The position numbers and the translations under genes were made by a program. Below the pieces are notes generated by a model. It did not search any database. It saw nothing but the letters and a program-made list of their open reading frames with translations, and was not told where the DNA came from. 64,000 bases of DNA from an uncultured Methanosarcinales archaeon (GTDB taxonomy: Archaea > Nanobdellota > Nanobdellia > Woesearchaeales > DSVV01): positions 2,089-66,088 of the forward strand of contig CAZKVI010000003.1 in assembly GCA_964556185.1 (NCBI GenBank), read 5' to 3'. Position 1 is the first letter of the stretch, and the number at the start of each line of letters is the position of its first letter. This document shows positions 22,550-59,083 of this stretch, in pieces.

Positions 22550-24718
22550 ATGGGAGAAAAGATGGTAGATAGGGTTACAAGAAGTATGAAGAACAAAGAA
22601 CAAATTAGAAATATTGCTATTTGTGCTCATATTGATCATGGTAAAACAACATTCTCAGATAACTTATTAGCAGGAGCAGGAATGTTGAGTGAAGAAATCG
22701 CAGGAAAAGCTTGTGTTCTTGATTTTCACGATGACGAACAAGAAAGAGGAATCACAATTGATTCTGCAAGTGTATCTATGGTTCACACTTTCAAAGAAAA
22801 AGATTACTTAATTAACTTAATTGATACTCCTGGTCACGTTGATTTTGGTGGAGACGTTACAAGAGCAATGCGTGCAGTTGATGGTGCAATTGTTTTAGTA
22901 GACGCTGTTGAAGGTGTTATGCCACAAACAGAAACAGTTCTAAGACAAGCATTAAAAGAAAGAGTTAAACCAATACTTTTCATTAATAAATCTGATAGAT
23001 TAATCAAAGAATTACAATTAACACCAGAACAAATGCAAGAAAAGTTTGTCAAAGTGATTACACATGTTAATAAATTAATCAAAGATATTGCAGGCGAAGA
23101 ACTTGGAAACAAATGGCAAGTTAATGTTCAAGACGGTTCTGTTTGTTTTGGATCTGCTTTCCACAATTGGGCACTTTCTATTGACTACATGCAGTCAAAA
23201 GGAATTTCTTTTAAAGATATTATTGATGCTTATGAAGCAGGCGAAGAAGCTTACAAAGAACTTGGAAAAAAAGCACCTTTGCATGAAGTTATCTTAAATT
23301 CTGTTATTACACATCTACCAAATCCAGATGAAGCTCAAAGATATAGAATTCCAAAGCTTTGGAGAGGAGATATGGAAAGTGAAGACGGAAAAGGATTAAT
23401 ATCATGTGATCCAAATGGCCCTTTATTTTTTATAATTACAAAAATTGTTGTTGATCCTCAAGCAGGAGAAATCTCTGCCGGTAGATTATTCTCAGGAACA
23501 ATGAAAAAAGGGACACCTGTTTACTTAAACAGAGCAAAGTGTAATTTAAGAGTACAACAAGTGTTTATTTACAATGGATCTAAAAGAGAAATTGTCGACG
23601 AGGTTCCAGCAGGAAACATTATTGGTGTAGCTGGATTAAAAGCAGCTCCTGGAGAAACAATTACATTAGAACCTTCAGAACCTTTTGAAGAAATTAAACA
23701 CATTTTTGATCCTGTTGTTACAAAAGCAATTGAAGCAGCAAGACCAAGCGATCTTCCAAAATTAATTGAAGTCTTAAGAATGGTTCAAAAAGAAGATCCA
23801 ACAATTAAAATTGAAATTAATGAAGAAACAGGCGAACATTTAATGAGTGGAATGGGTGAACTACACCTGGAAGTAATTGAAAATAGAATTAAGACAGAGA
23901 AAAATGTAGAAGTAAAGACTTCACCACCTGTTGTTGTTTACAGAGAAACCATTACAAAAACATCTGAAATATTTATGGGTAAATCCCCTAATAAACACAA
24001 CCATTTATTCTTTAGTGTGGAACCAGTTCCACAAGCTGTAGCTGATGCAATTAAGTCTGGCGACATCCCATCTGGAAGAATAAAGAAAAAAGACATTGAA
24101 TTAAGAGACAAATTGGTTGATTTAGGAATGGACTCTAAAATGGCTTCACAAGTTAAAAATATTCATGAAGGAAATATGTTATTTGAAACCACACGTGGTC
24201 AAGTACATATTGGAGAAATCATGGAAATGGTTAACGATATGTTTGAAGATGTTATGCATGCAGGTCCAGTTGCTAGAGAACCATGTACAGGAGTTTTAGT
24301 GAAATTTGTTGATTGTAAATTACATGAAGATGCTATTCACAGAGGTCCTGCACAAATGTACCCAGCAATTAGAGAAGGTATTAGAGAAGCAATGGCACAT
24401 GCAAAACCAATGATCTTTGAACCAGTACAAACCCTTCAATTCGAGGCTCCTGAAGAATTTATGGGAGAAGTTTCCAAATTAATCTCTAACAAAAGAGGAC
24501 AACTATTAGACATGCAACAAGATGCAGGTACAGTAGTTGTAAAAGGTAAAATGCCAGTTGGAGAAATGTTTGGGTTAAGTAATGATCTTAGATCTGCAAC
24601 AGGGGGAAGAGGAAGCTCTTCTTTAGTTGATCAGACATTCGAAAGACTACCTGATGAATTACAGCAAAAGATCATAAAACAAATTAGAGATAGAAAAGGG
24701 CTAACAGATGCTCAATAA
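22550..24718 (+). CDS. fusA: Elongation factor 2 (aEF-2)
   Basis: G domain AHIDHGKTTFSD, DTPGHVDF and NKSD. Domain IV has AIHRGPAQ, the diphthamide histidine context. Confidence 0.95.
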   Translation: MGEKMVDRVTRSMKNKEQIRNIAICAHIDHGKTTFSDNLLAGAGMLSEEIAGKACVLDFHDDEQERGITIDSASVSMVHTFKEKDYLINLIDTPGHVDFGGDVTRAMRAVDGAIVLVDAVEGVMPQTETVLRQALKERVKPILFINKSDRLIKELQLTPEQMQEKFVKVITHVNKLIKDIAGEELGNKWQVNVQDGSVCFGSAFHNWALSIDYMQSKGISFKDIIDAYEAGEEAYKELGKKAPLHEVILNSVITHLPNPDEAQRYRIPKLWRGDMESEDGKGLISCDPNGPLFFIITKIVVDPQAGEISAGRLFSGTMKKGTPVYLNRAKCNLRVQQVFIYNGSKREIVDEVPAGNIIGVAGLKAAPGETITLEPSEPFEEIKHIFDPVVTKAIEAARPSDLPKLIEVLRMVQKEDPTIKIEINEETGEHLMSGMGELHLEVIENRIKTEKNVEVKTSPPVVVYRETITKTSEIFMGKSPNKHNHLFFSVEPVPQAVADAIKSGDIPSGRIKKKDIELRDKLVDLGMDSKMASQVKNIHEGNMLFETTRGQVHIGEIMEMVNDMFEDVMHAGPVAREPCTGVLVKFVDCKLHEDAIHRGPAQMYPAIREGIREAMAHAKPMIFEPVQTLQFEAPEEFMGEVSKLISNKRGQLLDMQQDAGTVVVKGKMPVGEMFGLSNDLRSATGGRGSSSLVDQTFERLPDELQQKIIKQIRDRKGLTDAQ

Positions 24719-24738: not shown

Positions 24739-26331
24739 TTATTTTTTCAATTGCTCAGATTTAGCAAAATCTCTATTTGCTTCATCTTGTCTATCCATCC
24801 TTTCTAGTGCACAACCTCTATTGTTATAACATGTAGCCAAGAATTCATCTGAAACGTCTTCTGCTTTATCAATTACAATTGAATATTGTTCAAATGCATT
24901 TTCATTATCTCCTTTTTTAAGGTAAGCATATCCTAATCCTGATATTGCATCATAATCATCTGGTTCTAATTTTAATTGTTCAAATCTACACTCAATAGCT
25001 AAATCATATTCTTCTAAGCTTACAGCTGCAACTGCAGCATTATTATAAACAGCTTTTTGTGTTCCTTCCTCTAATTCATTTCTAACTTCTATTAATATTT
25101 TATAATGACGTAGTGCATCTTCTTTATTTCCAAGTTCTCCATTAGCATAAGCTACACCAAAACGTGCATCATGATTATTTGGATCAAAAGCAAGTAAATA
25201 ATAACCATCTACAATAGCACCTTTCCAATCACCGACTTCTCTTCTTGCACCAAAACTATTAGTTCGTATATACATACAATTAGGAAATAAAGAACTTGCT
25301 CTATTCAAACAATCAGAAGCTTTTTCCATACATTGCTCTTTTTCACCTTCTTCAGCAATATCAGATCTTACTATCCATTCATATCCTAAGTTCCCATACA
25401 TAATTCCAGCAATTTGTTTTTTATTAAGACCTTTCATATATCCTCCTCTTTCTAATTCATCTCTACCTAAACCAAATTCTTCAATATATTCTTCATCACT
25501 CCTTGCAATTCCTGCAGTAGTTTCCCAATTCACATGACTACCATCAAATTTCCCCCATCTTACAAACATATGTTCTGGGCCTAATACAGCTTCAATAGGG
25601 AAATTAAGTACTTGCCCAATTGCAAGATAAATCATTGACATATTGTCACAATCCATTTGGTAAAATCCTTGACTATATTTTTCTATTTTTCTTCTTCTTG
25701 AACCTCTTCTATATTCACTAAGGAAAGAGAAATAACCAGAAGGAGATTGAGTACGTAAAATATGATCATTTATGAAATCATTTACTTCTTCTGATGCTTC
25801 TGTAAATTCATCTCCTTCAAAATCAATAATTTTTTGAGCATTTCCTTCATCTTTTAGATATTCTACAATTTCTCCTTCTTGTTTTGTAAATGCTGAACCT
25901 AGTCTATTATTTTCTTTATAAACAACATTAAATATATCAGAAAGAGCTTCATCAATCCATCCCATAATCTTTCTTATGTCATCTAGATCATATGTTTCTA
26001 TCATTTCACTACTAAAAGCTGAGTCAACTCCTTCCTCACCAAGCCTTGAACCTAAAGATACTCTTTCTGGGCTTGCAATTTCTGCTTTATATTTTGTTCT
26101 AATTTCATGAATAACAGAATCTAAGAAATCATAATTTTCTTGAGTTACTTCAAAACCTTGTAGATGTTCAGCATCTAAAAATGAATGAGCATATGTATTA
26201 TATCTAGAATCAAATCCAGATCTTTCTCTCTCAATTGCCAAGGCTGTAACAGGTGCAAAACTAGTCACAATTGCTGCCAAACCAGCTGCAGCTCCACTAG
26301 CACCCAAAAACCACCTTCTACTCCTTTCCAT
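24739..26331 (-). CDS. Tat-signal secreted protein with a transglutaminase-like cysteine-protease core and C-terminal TPR repeats
   Basis: N-terminus MERSRRWFLGASGAAAGLAA is a twin-arginine signal. QMDCDNMSMIYLAIG ... PEHMFVRW is a Cys/His core. The C-terminal half has repeated TPR-like W/Y-x-N/A patterns. GC-richer composition. Confidence 0.45.
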   Translation of the reverse strand: MERSRRWFLGASGAAAGLAAIVTSFAPVTALAIERERSGFDSRYNTYAHSFLDAEHLQGFEVTQENYDFLDSVIHEIRTKYKAEIASPERVSLGSRLGEEGVDSAFSSEMIETYDLDDIRKIMGWIDEALSDIFNVVYKENNRLGSAFTKQEGEIVEYLKDEGNAQKIIDFEGDEFTEASEEVNDFINDHILRTQSPSGYFSFLSEYRRGSRRRKIEKYSQGFYQMDCDNMSMIYLAIGQVLNFPIEAVLGPEHMFVRWGKFDGSHVNWETTAGIARSDEEYIEEFGLGRDELERGGYMKGLNKKQIAGIMYGNLGYEWIVRSDIAEEGEKEQCMEKASDCLNRASSLFPNCMYIRTNSFGARREVGDWKGAIVDGYYLLAFDPNNHDARFGVAYANGELGNKEDALRHYKILIEVRNELEEGTQKAVYNNAAVAAVSLEEYDLAIECRFEQLKLEPDDYDAISGLGYAYLKKGDNENAFEQYSIVIDKAEDVSDEFLATCYNNRGCALERMDRQDEANRDFAKSEQLKK

Positions 26332-26569: not shown

Positions 26570-27862
26570 ATGGCAGATAAAAAAATCCATATAAACCTTG
26601 TTTTTATCGGACACGTCGATCACGGTAAATCCACTACAGTAGGAAGACTACTTTTCGATTCAGGAAATATTGATGAAGCAGCAATGAGAAAGTTAAAAGA
26701 CAAAGCACAAGAGCTTGGAAAAGGTGGCTTTGAATTCGCTTTTGTCATGGACAACTTAAAAGAAGAAAGAGAAAGAGGAGTTACAATTGATCTAGCTCAC
26801 AAAAAGTTTGAGACAGACAAATACTACTTCACTATTATCGATGCACCAGGTCACAAGGACTTTATCAAGAACATGATTACAGGAGCATCACAAGCAGATG
26901 CAGGTGTTTTAGTTGTAGCTGCAAATGATGGTGTAAATGCACAAACAAAAGAACACGTCTTCTTATCCAAAACACTTGGAGTTAACCAATTAATTGTTGC
27001 AGTTAACAAAATGGATATCTCAGGTGTTGACTATGCTGAAGCAAAATTCAATTCAGTTCAAGAAGAAGTAGGAACACTTTTGAAATCAGTAGGTTATAAA
27101 GCAGATGAAATTCCATTTGTAGCAATCGCTTCTTTACCAGGAGATAATGTTGTTAAGAAAACAGACAAAATGCCATGGTATAAAGGAAAATCATTATTAG
27201 AAACAATCAATGATCTTAAGGAACCTGAAAAACCAACAGAACTTCCACTAAGACTTCCAATCCAAGATGTTTATAACATCACAGGTATTGGTGTTGTCCC
27301 AGTTGGAAGAGTTGAAACAGGTGTACTAAAAGTTGGACAAAAAGTTGTAGCAATTCCAGGAAGAGAAGGAAAAGGAGTTCCAGGCGAAGTTAAATCTATT
27401 GAGATGCATCACGAACAATTACAAGAAGCTGTTCCAGGTGACAACTGCGGATTTAATGTTCGAGGCTTTGGAAAAACAGACATTGCAAGAGGCGATGTTA
27501 TTGGTCCAGCAGATAATGCACCAACATTAGCAACAGAATTCACAGCACAAATTGTTGTGTTAAATCATCCATCTGTTGTAACTGTCGGTTACACACCAGT
27601 ATTCCACATACATACAGCTCAAGTTGCATGTCAAATTACAGCAATTGAGAAAAAGCTAAATCCAGCAACTGGAGAAGTTTTAGCAGAAAATCCTGACTTC
27701 ATCAAAAATGGTGACGCAGCAATTGTTAAAATTAAACCAGTACAACCTTTAGTAATTGAAACACAAAAGGAAATTCCACAACTTTCAAGATTCGCAATCA
27801 GGGATTCCGGTGCAACAGTTGCAGCAGGTATGTGTACAGCTTTAACTAAAAAGGAACTTTAA
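26570..27862 (+). CDS. tuf: Elongation factor 1-alpha (aEF-1alpha)
   Basis: [17 protein letters not shown] and NKMD GTPase motifs. 430 aa. Confidence 0.95.
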
Positions 27863-27926: not shown

Positions 27927-28235
27927 ATGCAAAAAGCAAGAATAAAGATAGCAAGTACAGACATAGACAAGATTAATAATACTTGTAGGTATATTTCTGA
28001 TATAGCTGATAAAACTGGTGTTGATATGCGTGGTCCTATTCCTTTACCAACTAAAAAATTAAAATTAACTACTCGTAAAACTCCTTGCGGAGACGGAAAA
28101 GCTTCCTGGGAAAGATACGAAATGCGAATTCATAAAAGATTCATTGATCTCGGCTTAGATGAAAGAGCTTTAAGATTGGTTATGAGGGTACCAATACCTG
28201 AAGGCTTGAACATAGAAATTGAAATGATTGATTAA
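27927..28235 (+). CDS. rps10: 30S ribosomal protein S10 (uS10)
   Basis: MQKARIKIASTDIDKINNTCRYISDIADKTGVDMRGPIPLPTKK matches S10. It is directly downstream of EF-1alpha, as in the conserved archaeal arrangement. Confidence 0.9.
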   Translation: MQKARIKIASTDIDKINNTCRYISDIADKTGVDMRGPIPLPTKKLKLTTRKTPCGDGKASWERYEMRIHKRFIDLGLDERALRLVMRVPIPEGLNIEIEMID

Positions 28236-28336
28236 GTTTGTTCTTGATTAACTCTTAGAATTGAGGCCGAAAGGCTCGAAGTCGAAGACTTCGCCCGCCT
28301 GAAGGCTTGAACATTGAGATTGAAATGATAGACTGA
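28197..28336 (+). repeat. Direct repeat: the last 13 codons of rps10 (28197..28235) duplicated at 28298..28336, separated by a 62-bp GC-rich hairpin-containing spacer
   Basis: Copy 1 is cctgaaggcttgaacatagaaattgaaatgattgattaa. Copy 2 is cctgaaggcttgaacattgagattgaaatgatagactga. The five differences are all synonymous and include stop TAA versus TGA. Confidence 0.8.
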
Positions 28337-28390
28337 TTCTACCCAAAAGCTTTTATTTGATACTTGATTTCTCTCTATTTAGGGTGCAAA

Positions 28391-28828
28391 ATGGCTAAAG
28401 TTAAGAGTAATGCAATTGGAAAACTTGAAGATGGTACTGAAGATAATAGAGCATATAATGCATTGGTTCGTCAATATGGTGTTGCATTTAAAGAATTATA
28501 TGATAATTTTCCAAGAGAACCAAAACCAAGATTAGGTCTTTATATGATGAGTATTAAAAGACCTGAAGGAGTCTTACGTCTTACACCAGGGGTTGTTGGT
28601 AGTTCATCAGATGGGATCCAGAAAAGAGTTCAAGCACATCTAGGAAAATGCTTAGATCAAATTGGATTAGATGATTTATGTATGGACGTTTTTACAGTTT
28701 CTTGTAATAGTACGAGCAGTGTTTGTGAAATAACTCCTTACACACTTGAAGCTAGAGCTTATTTAAAACATTATGGACAACAAATACTTGTTCCAGAAAT
28801 GCGAAGATTAAGATCTCAATCAAAATAA
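28391..28828 (+). CDS. Hypothetical protein
   Basis: The likely start is MAKVKSN, internal to ORF 28364..28828. Composition is slightly GC-richer. Confidence 0.3.
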   Translation: MAKVKSNAIGKLEDGTEDNRAYNALVRQYGVAFKELYDNFPREPKPRLGLYMMSIKRPEGVLRLTPGVVGSSSDGIQKRVQAHLGKCLDQIGLDDLCMDVFTVSCNSTSSVCEITPYTLEARAYLKHYGQQILVPEMRRLRSQSK

Positions 28829-29232
28829 TCTTCATAAGCAAATTTTCTTTTTTCAAATGTACAAGATCCTTTGTCTTCAATAACATTTCCATCTAGAGAA
28901 TTCCTAAATCTAGCAATTAATGCATTACAATCACTACATCTTCGAAAACAAGTTCCAATTTCCACTTCAAAACCTTTTTCATTTAATTGTTTTAACTTAG
29001 TTGGCACTTCTGCTCTTTCTCTGAAGACATTATAAACATTATGAACAAAAGAAGAATCAATTATTGCATCAGAGAGTCTAATTTGAAGTTTACATTTCTT
29101 AGGTGCTTTAGTTTCAACAACATCTTTCCTTATAAGGATACATCTAGAATTCTTTAGTCTATTCTCTCTATCTTGCTTTTGCTTTGCAAACTTATCAGGA
29201 AGTTTAATACTTCCATCAGGATTGAATTCCAT
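28816..29232 (-). CDS. Hypothetical Cys-containing protein (CxxC...CxxxCxxC)
   Basis: ORF 28816..29328 is trimmed to the internal Met (MEFNPDG) because its N-terminal 32 codons overlap the tRNA-Lys gene. Confidence 0.3.
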   Translation of the reverse strand: MEFNPDGSIKLPDKFAKQKQDRENRLKNSRCILIRKDVVETKAPKKCKLQIRLSDAIIDSSFVHNVYNVFRERAEVPTKLKQLNEKGFEVEIGTCFRRCSDCNALIARFRNSLDGNVIEDKGSCTFEKRKFAYEDYFD

Positions 29233-29236
29233 TTTA

Positions 29237-29356
29237 CGGGCCCACGGGGATTCGAACCCCGGGCCTATGGCTGTCTGTGCGTAAGCAAAGACCCAGTGGA
29301 TCTTTGATCCTAACGCGTAAGAGGCCACCGCTCTAACCAGGCTGAGCTATGAGCCC
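29237..29356 (-). tRNA. tRNA-Lys (anticodon CUU) with a ~45-nt intron at the canonical 37/38 position
   Basis: Minus-strand read: GGGCUCA-UA-GCUC-AGCCUGGUUA-GAGC-G-GUGGC-CUCUUA[intron]A-GCCAU-AGGCC-CGGGG-UUCGAAU-CCCCG-UGGGCCC-G. All four stems pair. The T-loop is TTCGAAT. Confidence 0.7.
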
Positions 29357-29485: not shown

Positions 29486-30367
29486 TTATCCTTGATAAAA
29501 ACCAATTAACTGTCTTTGTCTCTTAACATGTCTTAATTTTCTTAAGGCTTTTACTTCGATTTGTCTTATTCTTTCTCTTGTTAAATCAAATACTTGACCA
29601 ATCTCTTCAAGAGAATAATGACGAGGATGATCAATTCCATATCTCATTTTCATAACTTTTTCTTCTCTGGGTGTTAATTCAGCAAGTACACTTCTAACAG
29701 CCTTTGCTAAATCAGAATCCCCTACATTTTCATCAGGTCTTCGAACACTAGCTCCTTCTATAAAATCACCTATGGTTGCATCTGATTCATCACCAACTTT
29801 TTGCTCTAATGATAATGGTTCTCTTGCAAGCCTATAAATATCTTCAATTTTTTCAACTGGTTCACCTAACCAATCTGCAATTTCTTCAGAAGTTGGTTCT
29901 CTACCAAGATCAGTAACAAGTTTTCGAGCCGTTCTTCTAACTTTAGTAACCATTTCTAATTTATAAATTGGAATTCTTATTGTTCTTACTGTAGCTTCTA
30001 TTCCTCTAATAACACTTTGTCTAATCCACCAAGAAGCATATGTAGAAAATTTATATCCTCTTCTATATTCAAATTTTTCAACAGCTCTTATTAAACCTAA
30101 ATTACCTTCTTGAATTAAATCACCAAGTGGCAAGCCTCTATATTGGTATTGTCTTGCAATACTAACAACTAGTCTTAAATTGCCTTTTATTAAATCTTCT
30201 TTAGCTGTAGCTGCTTCATAAGGAGTGCCTTCTTCCATTGTTGTAGCTAATCTAACTTCATCATCTCTAGATAATAATGCTACAGCCCCCATTTGATTCA
30301 TATACTTCCTTAGAACTCTAGGATCATCTCTATATCTTGGCCCACCTTGATAATGACTAACACCCAT
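29486..30367 (-). CDS. Bacterial-type RNA polymerase sigma-70 family factor (regions 2, 3 and 4, RpoD-like)
   Basis: [40 protein letters not shown] aligns nearly residue-for-residue with RpoD region 2.1-2.4. [14 protein letters not shown] matches region 3. [15 protein letters not shown]...[29 protein letters not shown] matches the region 4.2 HTH. GC-richer codon usage. Confidence 0.8.
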
Positions 30368-48649: not shown

Positions 48650-48763
48650 CGCTGTGGCCCGGATTTGAACCGGGATATCCCGGAGGAAACAAGCTAAACA
48701 GTGCATGCCTTGAAAATACATACATTTCCAGGCTTGCGCAGTACCAGGTTGTGCCACCACAGC
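48650..48763 (-). tRNA. tRNA-Ser (anticodon GGA) with a ~30-nt intron at 37/38 and a long variable arm
   Basis: Acceptor GCUGUGG/CCACAGC plus G. Anticodon stem CAAGC/GCUUG. Loop CUGGAA[intron]A. Variable arm ~15 nt. T-arm CCCGG-UUCAAAU-CCGGG. Confidence 0.65.
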
Positions 48764-48770
48764 AAAAAAA

Positions 48771-48897
48771 GGTGGCAGTGGCGGGATCTGAACCCGCGGC
48801 TTCTAGATCGCCCAGATATAAAGTTTAATCATCGGCATGAGCCTCATCACTCAAATCTTATGAGTCTAGCACTCTAACCAGGCTGAGTTACACTGCC
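48771..48897 (-). tRNA. tRNA-Met (CAU anticodon; possibly Ile2 if C34 is modified) with a ~50-nt intron at 37/38, encoded CC, and an oligo-T terminator
   Basis: Acceptor GGCAGUG/CACUGCC plus A plus CC. D-arm ACUC-AGCCUGGUUA-GAGU. Anticodon stem CUAGA/UCUAG. Loop CUCAUA[intron]A. T-arm GCGGG-UUCAGAU-CCCGC. The intron contains GUGAUGA (C-box-like). Confidence 0.65.
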
Positions 48898-51340: not shown

Positions 51341-51583
51341 TTACTGTAAATCTTTATGATATAAAGCAATAATATAAATGACTCTTTTTTCAATCCTATA
51401 TGATAATCTAAATGGAGGAATATACAACTCTCTTGTCCCTTTTCTATTATACATCATAGGTTTGCCAATCTCAGGATTATCTTTTATTTTAGAAATTTGT
51501 TTGATGATTTTCTGTTTAAGGGCATTATTCTTAATCTTACTAAATTCCTTCTTAAATAAAGAATCAAAAATAACTTCTACCAC
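51341..51583 (-). CDS. RelE/ParE-family type II toxin
   Basis: 80 aa. C-terminus ...RELYIPPFRLSYRIEKRVIYIIALYHKDLQ follows the RelE/ParE pattern. It overlaps the upstream antitoxin gene by 7 nt. Confidence 0.55.
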   Translation of the reverse strand: MVEVIFDSLFKKEFSKIKNNALKQKIIKQISKIKDNPEIGKPMMYNRKGTRELYIPPFRLSYRIEKRVIYIIALYHKDLQ

Positions 51584-51843
51584 TTTTTCATTTCCTCAAG
51601 AAAATCATCAAATTCCATTTTAATGCCTTTACCTTCTTCAATTCTCTTCCAAGCTTGTTCTGTTCTTTTTGCAAATTCTAGATCTTCTTTTAGATTTTTC
51701 TCTAATTCTGTAGCTTTCTTCATAATTAATTGATGGTCATTCTTAATAATGATTAATTTATCTCCTTCATGAAGATCTCCTCTCATTTCATTAGGAATTA
51801 CAACTTGGCCTTTTGAACTCATTCGTGTTATAGCAACATCCAT
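51577..51843 (-). CDS. AbrB/MazE/SpoVT-type antitoxin
   Basis: MDVAITRMSSKGQVVIPNEMRGDLHEGDKLII is a swapped-hairpin beta-barrel DNA-binding motif. Confidence 0.6.
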   Translation of the reverse strand: MDVAITRMSSKGQVVIPNEMRGDLHEGDKLIIIKNDHQLIMKKATELEKNLKEDLEFAKRTEQAWKRIEEGKGIKMEFDDFLEEMKKW

Positions 51844-51960
51844 ATTATCACCAAGTAAGATTAATCTTACTTAGTATATAAAGTTTACGGTTTTACACGT
51901 AAACTAAGAAGTCGAAGACTTCTGTATCTTTCTATTTTAGTATATAAATTAGTATAATAT

Positions 51961-58773: not shown

Positions 58774-58938
58774 GTGGGGGTAGCCCGTAAGAAGATTCTT
58801 TGGGTTCCCTAGAGCAAAGTCTGGTCAAATGCGCAGGACTTAAGATACACTGAAGACAGCCTTCACGGCAAAGTCTTTGTTTTGAATTAGACATCCTGTC
58901 ACTTAGTGTGTTCGGGGGTTCGAATCCCCTCCCCCACA
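58774..58938 (+). tRNA. tRNA-Leu (anticodon UAA) with two introns: ~29 nt between positions 9 and 10, and ~48 nt at 37/38
   Basis: Acceptor GUGGGGG/CCCCCAC plus A. After UA comes an insert [GCCCG...CUAGA]. D-arm GCA-AAGUCUGGUCAAA-UGC. G-CAGGA-CUUAAG[intron]A-UCCUG. Variable arm ~15 nt. T-arm GGGGG-UUCGAAU-CCCCU. Mature length ~88 nt fits a class II tRNA. Confidence 0.55.
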
Positions 58939-59068
58939 TTTTATTCTTTATTTTCTATTTTATGTGCGTACTGCTTTGCAAAGCAAATGCAGTACTCGCT
59001 GACTTTTTCCCAAGTTTTTACGAACGTAAAAAGCTGGTGGGGATCATCCTCCCCCACATTTTCTTTTT
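58926..59068 (+). repeat. Direct repeat of the tRNA-Leu 3' end (CCTCCCCCACATTTT at 58926..58940 and 59054..59068) bracketing a 110-bp spacer with a long palindromic hairpin
   Basis: Spacer contains gcgtactgc-tttgcaaagcaaa-tgcagtactcgc. The second copy forms an acceptor-like minihelix ggtgggg-atcatcct-cccccac. Confidence 0.5.
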
Positions 59069-59083
59069 GATTTTGATTAAGAA

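Follow-up and report, generated by a model that had tools for sequence, protein, structure and literature searches.

The 3′ end of the gene for ribosomal protein S10 (rps10) occurs twice in a 64,000-nt stretch of DNA from a DPANN archaeon (contig CAZKVI010000003.1, hereafter the window): the last 13 codons of the gene, stop included, are repeated just downstream of it, beyond a short hairpin-bearing spacer, and every difference between the two copies is silent. Our preferred reading, to which we give about an even chance, is that the tandem is the scar of an old recombination event anchored in S10, later overwritten by functional S10 alleles and reworked by gene conversion. The scar would sit at the border between the conserved EF-1alpha–S10 operon and a hypervariable slot, with no integrated element.

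A gene end duplicated with silent differences

The working S10 gene (27927–28235, plus strand) encodes an intact protein of 102 aa (PF00338) and closes at its first stop codon, the TAA at 28233–28235. Its last 12 codons and this stop make up the first copy of the repeat (28197–28235, plus strand), whose tail, ATT GAT TAA, is the 'standard' type of most relatives. The second copy (28298–28336, plus strand) is untranslated, carries the tail ATA GAC TGA and leads straight into the promoter region of an orphan open reading frame (ORF), ORF145. Translation ends within the first copy, which leaves the S10 protein untouched by the unit, that is, by the spacer with its additional S10 end. The copies agree in 34 of 39 bases and both translate as PEGLNIEIEMID followed by a stop. 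All five mismatches are silent: four fall at third codon positions (repeat positions 18, 21, 33 and 36) and the fifth, TAA against TGA, at the second position of the stop codon (repeat position 38). An earlier note on this DNA had described the final 13 rps10 codons as occurring twice, 62 bp apart, with five mismatches that were all third-position and synonymous; the duplication and the synonymy stand, at the coordinates just given, and only the stop-codon difference was misplaced.

A degenerate pattern of the 39-mer has exactly two sites in the window, where none is expected (100 shuffles), and among the 3′ ends of the 64 window ORFs that of S10 alone has its last 30 nt repeated downstream (25/30, against a background of 16–21). 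Nor is the tandem an artefact of assembly, because four independent contigs of JGI and ENA assemblies (L001, L002, L004 and L007) carry it unchanged; the assembly collapse that had been raised together with the original observation is thereby ruled out.

Were changes to fall at random, the probability that all five window differences are silent would be 6e-5 to 6e-4; under a stricter null, in which copy 1 is selected and copy 2 drifts freely, it is 0.003. A sister lineage, described below, has a unit whose two S10 ends differ at four positions, again all silent (P = 0.013 under the copy-1-selected null and 7e-4 to 2e-3 under random change). Pooled over both lineages, 9/9 differences between copies are silent.

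The same unit in a sister lineage

The window was compared with contigs whose S10 proteins are 95–99% identical to its own, plus one relative at 89% (P0008). What follows the S10 stop varies among them. In the 'empty' state (L009, L010, L012, L015 and L016) a conserved 138-aa gene lies on the opposite strand 12–38 nt past the stop (38 nt in L009). In a second state (L014 and L034) a promoter-like segment and a gene of the ORF145/148 family follow a single S10 end. A third (L008, L011, L013, L056, L060 and, judged by gene spacing, one JGI contig) has the same arrangement plus a 95-nt unit, and in a fourth (L035, L036, L017 and L037) other genes come after S10, the promoter segment being kept in L036. 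The slot may thus be empty, or hold ORF145/148 with or without the unit, a lipoprotein-like gene, two other genes, or an island of a 397-aa gene and a ParE-like gene: at least six gene contents among close relatives. We conclude that the slot downstream of S10 is a hypervariable recombination hotspot, of which the S10 3′ end is the left border. A short JGI contig (L043, 1–160) has an ORF148-family gene fused at its first codons to an unrelated coding sequence, without the S10 promoter segment; either the slot has a further recombination state here or the assembly is a chimera.

The unit of the third state consists of the duplicated S10 end, a homologous spacer of 56–57 nt and the hairpin CGAAGTC-AAA-GACTTCG, and its second copy begins from the same CCN GAA GG as in the window. 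At least five contigs of different samples, verified at the DNA level (L008/L053, L011, L013/L057, L056 and L060), carry it in identical form, and gene spacing points to one more (JGI 3300072015). The junction, ...GCC followed by CCNGAAGG, is the same in both unit-bearing lineages and shows a possible CC microhomology. A single S10 end, or empty site, is seen in L014, L034, L036, L009 and L016.

The homology of the two spacers is clear from local alignment (score 64; 0/2000 shuffles as good). Between the lineages the spacer diverges by 15–21% (identity 79–85%), and the neighbouring genes by 13–19%; since its divergence is about that of the surrounding genome, the spacer appears to be long resident in both lineages, which fits better than a recent mobile spread. 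For comparison, the window and L008 are 97% identical over EF-1alpha (96.9% at the nucleotide level against the sister lineage), 81–89% over the 138-aa gene and a sigma-70 gene, and 71% over ORF145/148. No further copy of the spacer was found in 341 kb of related DNA.

Probable exchange between the copies and with functional alleles

Alignment to relatives, which the earlier note had proposed as the way to find the native copy, shows that copy 2 of both lineages leads directly into the promoter segment found after the single S10 end of unit-less relatives, whereas the copy-1 tail and the spacer have no counterpart in them. The arrangement of the tails is swapped: the window has ATT GAT TAA and then ATA GAC TGA, whereas L008 has ATA GAC TGA (followed by TTCT) and then ATT GAT TAA. 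The working S10 end of L008, L011, L013, L056 and L060, ATGATAGACTGA and then TTCT, is exactly the tail of the window's second copy. That this copy evolved as the functional S10 end of another genome, as had been suggested from the window alone, is borne out both by this working stop in L008 and by the 9/9 silent differences.

The two copies have also come to resemble each other. The codons GGC TTG AAC are present in both window copies and in none of the S10 genes of nine relatives. Over the 31 positions of the core, 1–2 differences separate the copies within one genome and 6 separate the orthologous copies of the two lineages; the remaining differences are concentrated at the repeat edges (3/5 in the window, 4/4 in L008). 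Nucleotides 1–250 of the window S10 gene are 98.8% identical to L034, and divergence then leaps inside the repeat, where six window-specific changes lie within 15 nt, 4/6 of them shared with copy 2, before the standard tail closes the gene. This mosaic indicates sequence exchange between the two copies. Copy 2, the promoter and ORF145 of the window together form a haplotype apart from the 'standard' one of L008, L014 and L034.

Exchange reaches beyond the repeat. From just 5′ of S10 to the contig end (3.3 kb), L008 matches the unit-less L014 at 100% identity, save for the 95-nt unit, and clusters of single-nucleotide polymorphisms and mosaics lie upstream of this block, which shows frequent homologous recombination. 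The missing unit of L014 could be explained by deletion between the repeats, by excision, or by collapse of the 29-nt exact repeat in assembly; single-copy sites in general may equally be expected from deletion between direct repeats. For the L008 group, the S10 3′ end was also considered as the boundary of recombination and rejected: the 100% block begins 5′ of the S10 start.

A proposed scar of anchored recombination

From the anatomy of the tandem, the states of its relatives, the silent-only differences and the mosaic gene we infer a single origin, a mechanism of anchored recombination and a process of conversion. One ancestral event would have set a second S10 3′ end (the last 13 codons) 3′ of a hairpin-bearing stretch of 57–62 nt, itself of foreign or flanking origin. 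Incoming DNA from a related strain most probably paired through S10 homology on one side and was joined illegitimately on the other, one S10 end being displaced rather than replaced ('3′-end displacement'). Both copies would then have been overwritten repeatedly, by homologous recombination with the S10 ends of unit-less relatives and, as a second route, by gene conversion between the two copies. Such overwriting would keep the interiors near-identical within each genome and leave differences, all of them silent, at the repeat edges; the direct repeats would also permit precise loss of the unit. The scar reading accounts for the silent-only and edge-biased differences, the mosaic S10 gene, the junction common to both lineages and a spacer that diverges as the host does. 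As a displacement scar should, the locus has a conserved anchor upstream (EF-1alpha and S10) and variable cassettes downstream, together with a copy that bears the coding signature of a functional allele.

Several observations weigh against this account. The swapped tails demand one event more. In L008, the 100% identity to L014 supports a standard allele having overwritten copy 2; the window tail needs either three silent substitutions and a 5-nt indel or an exchange over very short homology. The distribution is patchy, with the unit in two lineages and absent from at least four closer or intermediate ones, so that a single origin requires several losses. No donor was found: in none of the relatives examined does the spacer natively follow a lone S10 end. 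The hairpin may be under selection: it is conserved, with one compensatory change, and the window's copy-2 tail is unchanged with respect to copy 1 of L008. There is a similar second case in the window, a gene end repeated past a hairpin-rich spacer (58928/59048), which hints at a more general, possibly enzymatic, process. Finally, the unit-less L014 is itself uncertain and could reflect repeat collapse by the assembler.

Displacement of this kind has a precedent in the model of an anchor and an illegitimate join that was put forward for C-terminal displacement in bacterial Rhs, contact-dependent inhibition (CDI) and type VI secretion system (T6SS) effector–immunity loci (PMC5361080). The S10 locus is like these in its conserved upstream anchor, in incoming DNA with its own conserved 3′ end, in the other copy pushed downstream as an 'orphan', and in the variable cassettes behind. 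It is unlike them in that the piece concerned is 13 codons of an essential ribosomal protein gene, that both ends encode the same peptide and hence leave no toxin/immunity logic, that the host is a DPANN archaeon, that the copies are in concerted evolution, and that the mechanism here is inferred. Host and gene would both be unusual for a duplicated gene end of recombinational origin.

If the scar reading is true, the locus is a small and clean record of DNA exchange among close DPANN archaea at the edge of a ribosomal operon: 100 bp would hold a gene end that was displaced, two 39-nt repeats in concerted evolution and an S10 gene of mosaic make-up. It would also mean that silent-only differences in a non-coding duplicate can stem from recombination with functional alleles, an integrated element not being required. 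The site is useful as a strain-level recombination marker in Woesearchaeota metagenomes, where assemblies tend to break at it.

The spacer and its hairpins

The spacer (28236–28297, plus strand) comprises 62 non-coding nt, AT-rich in its left half and GC-rich and hairpin-forming in its right half. At its tip is the hairpin CGAAGTC-GAA-GACTTCG (28277–28293), and the sister lineage has the same stem around an AAA loop. The 15-nt core of this hairpin, GAAGTCGAAGACTTC (28278–28292), is the recurring spacer hairpin of the earlier note; it does recur exactly, but only once, at 51908–51922. A larger, interrupted hairpin of 20 bp (28254–28318, plus strand) combines the right half of the spacer with the first codons of copy 2 and is conserved in both lineages. 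The RNAalifold consensus has 20 pairs, with one compensatory change from G-C to A-U and one change from G-U to G-C, and the fold z-scores of the unit are −4.3 (window) and −3.3 (L008). Conservation across only two sequences is suggestive of selection on the hairpin.

Rfam returned no match at the gathering threshold, positions 28100–28450 giving only chance-level matches (E = 2.4 and 9.9). A search of genome, metagenome and viral contigs with the hairpin query GGCTCGAAGTCNAAGACTTCG gave chance matches in high-GC bacteria only, a weak negative in that these collections returned not even the known unit-bearing contigs, those of this clade evidently being absent from them. Three sequences from which the spacer might have decayed, namely the promoter region downstream, the S10 sequence 5′ of the repeat and the S10 end taken as its reverse complement, scored no better against it than shuffles did. 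A C/D-box small RNA and off-target integration of a CRISPR spacer were dropped on sequence grounds, and an integron attC site was rejected: the R''/R' cores (RYYYAAC ... GTTRRRY) are absent from the unit on inspection and no integrase was found.

Contigs tend to break at the tip hairpin. Three from different samples end at one same base (...GGCTCG, window 28278), before the hairpin, and another begins inside it, at 28282 (contigs concerned at 28278–28282: L003, L005, L006 and L046); L007 terminates exactly at the last base of copy 2. The breaks at the hairpin, with its tandem TCGAAG TCGAAG, suggest strain heterogeneity or a coverage problem.

Alternative explanations

The earlier note had suggested that the repeat is the attachment (att) core expected where an integrative element targets the end of rps10; on this reading the two copies would be attL and attR of a gene-carrying virus or plasmid. 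Elements that integrate at 3′ ends do carry a replacement gene end; most archaeal att sites are in tRNA genes, but protein-coding genes have some too (PMC8371274), and relatives have variable genes 3′ of S10. Such an element is nonetheless highly improbable here, as the copies enclose 62 non-coding nt with no ORF, rather than DNA of element size. A third copy of the S10 end is found neither in the 64-kb window nor at any related locus, so that none bounds ORF145 or anything else within 28–36 kb on either side, and ORF145 stands without the duplication in L014 and L034. By Pfam no integrase or transposase domain is present in 25 window ORFs, including all genes within 5 kb, although many of the tested ORFs had no Pfam match at all and a novel recombinase could escape this test. 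ORF145 has no PHROG match. In viral contigs, neither the hairpin nor the coding pattern of the S10 C-terminus had any match (0 each). Like the attL/attR sites of tyrosine-recombinase elements (PMC8371274), the S10 repeats are direct repeats of a gene 3′ end, one of which completes the gene with foreign sequence, and the differences between them are those of two functional alleles; unlike such sites, they lie 62 nt apart, and no element, integrase, excisionase or attP-bearing virus or plasmid was found with them. A smaller entity is the alternative: the unit itself could be a non-autonomous integrative element of ~95–101 bp, made of the spacer, an S10-like core and a ATAGACTGA tail, which recombines with the S10 3′ end through a recombinase encoded elsewhere and brings its own S10 end, leaving the gene intact. 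We hold this to be unlikely, though it is the main rival of the scar reading. The material absent from unit-less relatives is, in both lineages, one contiguous, circularly permuted block (TTCT, spacer, core, ATAGACTGA); as an insertion it seems to interrupt the S10 core in L008 and to follow the stop, at TTCT, in the window, and two registers of insertion would explain the swapped tails without extra events. The codons GAG, GAC and TGA and the hairpin are GC-richer than the ~31% GC genome; both states exist in the otherwise 100% identical 3.3-kb background of L008 and L014; and a second 3′-end duplication past a hairpin-rich spacer lies beside a tRNA-like gene. However, there is one copy per genome region and none elsewhere in the 341 kb or in three public collections scanned, spacer divergence follows genome divergence, the window has yielded no recombinase, the cores resemble the host rather than a common element sequence, and L014 is perhaps an assembly collapse. 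A double-stranded circle of ~100 bp is, moreover, a poor recombination substrate. Were such a unit to move, the single-copy junction would read S10 head and then ...GAAATGATAGACTGATTCTACCC, and the circle junction ...ATAGACTGA and then TTCTTGATTAAC.

Its nearest bacterial analogue would be an att-flanked cis-mobilizable element (CIME) reduced to its att sites. CIMEs are att-flanked remnants of bacterial integrative and conjugative or integrative and mobilizable elements, some of them in the 3′ ends of ribosomal protein genes; those known come from bacteria, measure kilobases and have identified cognate integrases. As in CIMEs, att-like repeats flank DNA without recombination genes, both in the window and in L008, and a ribosomal protein gene is targeted at its 3′ end; unlike CIMEs, the insert is 57–62 nt. 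The unit is confined to a single locus, and the two registers and the L008/L014 polymorphism are no more than suggestive of mobility. The spacer is like miniature inverted-repeat transposable elements and the repetitive extragenic palindromic and BOX sequences in being short, non-coding, hairpin-forming and intergenic, with a core that recurs at a second intergenic site. It differs from them in that the unit has no terminal inverted repeats, no short fixed target-site duplication and no multiple copies; the flanking repeat is 31–39 nt of coding sequence with allelic silent differences, and no transposase was found. There is a slim chance that DPANN archaea harbour an undescribed class of such ~100-nt non-autonomous units, in which hairpin DNA travels with its own conserved-gene 3′ end, enters in several registers and depends on a recombinase encoded elsewhere; the class would include the S10 unit and possibly that at the tRNA-Leu-like gene at 58.9 kb, a gene end being harmlessly replaced or shadowed in each case. 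If true, archaea with reduced genomes would possess very small mobile DNA of a new kind.

The duplication may instead have been kept because the hairpin is useful, as a structure in the 3′ untranslated region (UTR) of S10 or as a DNA element 5′ of the ORF145 promoter. The spacer could pair with either identical copy, and the two alternative folds might respond to translation at the end of S10 or define the 3′ terminus of the mRNA. The 20-pair consensus in both lineages, with its compensatory and its G-U to G-C change, the folding z-scores of −4.3 and −3.3, the survival of the unit through 15–20% divergence although direct repeats ease deletion, and the identical 15-nt hairpin 5′ of a MazE/ParE-like pair at 51908 are all consistent with selection. 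We nevertheless think a selected structure rather improbable as the explanation: most close relatives do without the unit, including L014 and L034, and because these strains have the same promoter and ORF145-family gene the unit must be dispensable. Two sequences and a single compensatory pair are weak evidence, no Rfam family matches, no T-run directly follows the hairpin, and the unpaired repeat positions are homogenised too, which structure alone does not explain. It is possible that a selected hairpin accompanied either origin, scar or mobile mini-element. There is a very small chance that the fold is a bulge-helix-bulge-like RNA-processing motif in the S10 3′ UTR, at which the archaeal splicing endonuclease would cleave the RNA or remove a mini-intron. 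A 4-bp helix (AGGC/GCCU) does stand between 3-nt unpaired flanks, with outer 5-bp and inner 7-bp helices, and the genome has several intron-bearing tRNAs; but the internal loops are 3x3 and 1x3 where the canonical motif has staggered single-strand bulges, the central helix of L008 is just 3 bp, and cleavage would take out ~27 nt of untranslated RNA and leave the duplication unexplained. Scarcely more credible is a plain in-place tandem duplication in slow decay, or an assembly artefact. Slippage yields short tandem duplications and repeats can mis-assemble, but the tandem is identical in four independent assemblies, and in at least five for the sister lineage, the spacer is not copied from neighbouring sequence, the silent-only pattern is improbable under decay (P = 0.003 and 0.013), and one tail allele is common to the lineages at different positions.

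Gene context of the duplicated end

The window has a GC content of ~31%, that of a low-GC archaeal host, and contains the genes for the archaeal elongation factors aEF-2 (22550–24718) and aEF-1alpha (26570–27862, plus strand) as well as S10 (27927–28235). The aEF-1alpha gene was recognised from its ORF and translation, the Pfam domains GTP_EFTU, D2, D3 and eEF1A_C being found on the identical gene of L001; it is the conserved operon partner 5′ of S10 and marks the host as an archaeon. Of 6045 homologues of S10, the closest named ones belong to Woesearchaeota/Nanoarchaeota (metagenome-assembled genomes). In the window lineage a 530-aa gene with tetratricopeptide repeats (24739–26331, minus strand) lies between aEF-2 and aEF-1alpha; it is lacking in the L008/L009 lineage, where aEF-2 is directly 5′ of aEF-1alpha.

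Downstream of copy 2 is the segment resembling a promoter and 5′ UTR (28337–28390, plus strand), with the TATA-like TTTTATTTGATA at 28351–28362. It is 94% identical to L008 and also present in L014, L034 and L036, the last with other sequence behind it, so that the segment persists in relatives where a different gene follows; its role as a promoter is predicted from the sequence. ORF145 itself (28391–28828, plus strand) is an orphan gene in the variable slot between S10 and the conserved 138-aa gene. It has no Pfam match and no viral relative, and its relatives amount to only two representatives among 1.84 billion proteins. It is 56% identical to ORF148 of L008 and missing from L009, L010, L012, L015 and L016; its AlphaFold2 model is unreliable (pLDDT 43). 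The 138-aa gene (28816–29232, minus strand; 88% aa identity to L009) forms the right border of the slot.

Beyond it, a tRNA gene (29237–29356, minus strand) has an intron of ~47 nt in the window, one of several intron-bearing tRNAs there, and its L008 counterpart is intron-less at 75 nt (L008 4445–5218 region), with a LAGLIDADG endonuclease ORF between the 138-aa gene and the tRNA. The gene at 29486–30367 (minus strand) encodes a full bacterial-type sigma-70 (regions 1.2, 2, 3 and 4) in this archaeal genome; it is kept in every relative with sufficient downstream sequence and is present in two copies in L009, L010 and L012.

Similar structures elsewhere in the window

The second occurrence of GAAGTCGAAGACTTC (51908–51922) lies in the segment 51871–51948, where, together with a hairpin TTTACG...CGTAAA (51884–51903), it is placed between two TATA-like TTAGTATATAAA (51871 and 51937). 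These hairpins are 5′ of a MazE-like and ParE-like pair (51577–51843 and 51341–51583, minus strand), and the 12-nt repeat at this toxin–antitoxin locus is, by our estimate, within chance expectation. The TTTACG/CGTAAA stem is also found in the spacer of the tRNA-like locus described next (59017–59030). A hairpin family shared by the S10, toxin–antitoxin and tRNA loci was considered and rejected: two stems recur, with a small excess (10 observed, 2–7 in shuffles), and GAAGTC/GACTTC hairpins are found inside coding repeats too. The retrieved contigs are all identical at the toxin–antitoxin and tRNA-like loci, with no polymorphism at either.

At 58774–59074 is a tRNA-Leu-like gene, probably with two introns, that has an acceptor pairing of 7 bp (GTGGGGG/CCCCCAC) and a T-arm at 58914–58930; ARAGORN did not call it and Rfam matched the T-arm alone. 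Its last 11 nt and a trailer of 16 nt (58928–58954) occur again ~100 nt downstream, at 59048–59074 (24/27), and the 93-nt spacer between these repeats forms two strong hairpins (z = −4.2). The locus is the same in three other contigs. Two further adjacent tRNA genes with introns (114 and 125 nt; 48650–48897, minus strand) were detected by Rfam and missed by ARAGORN.

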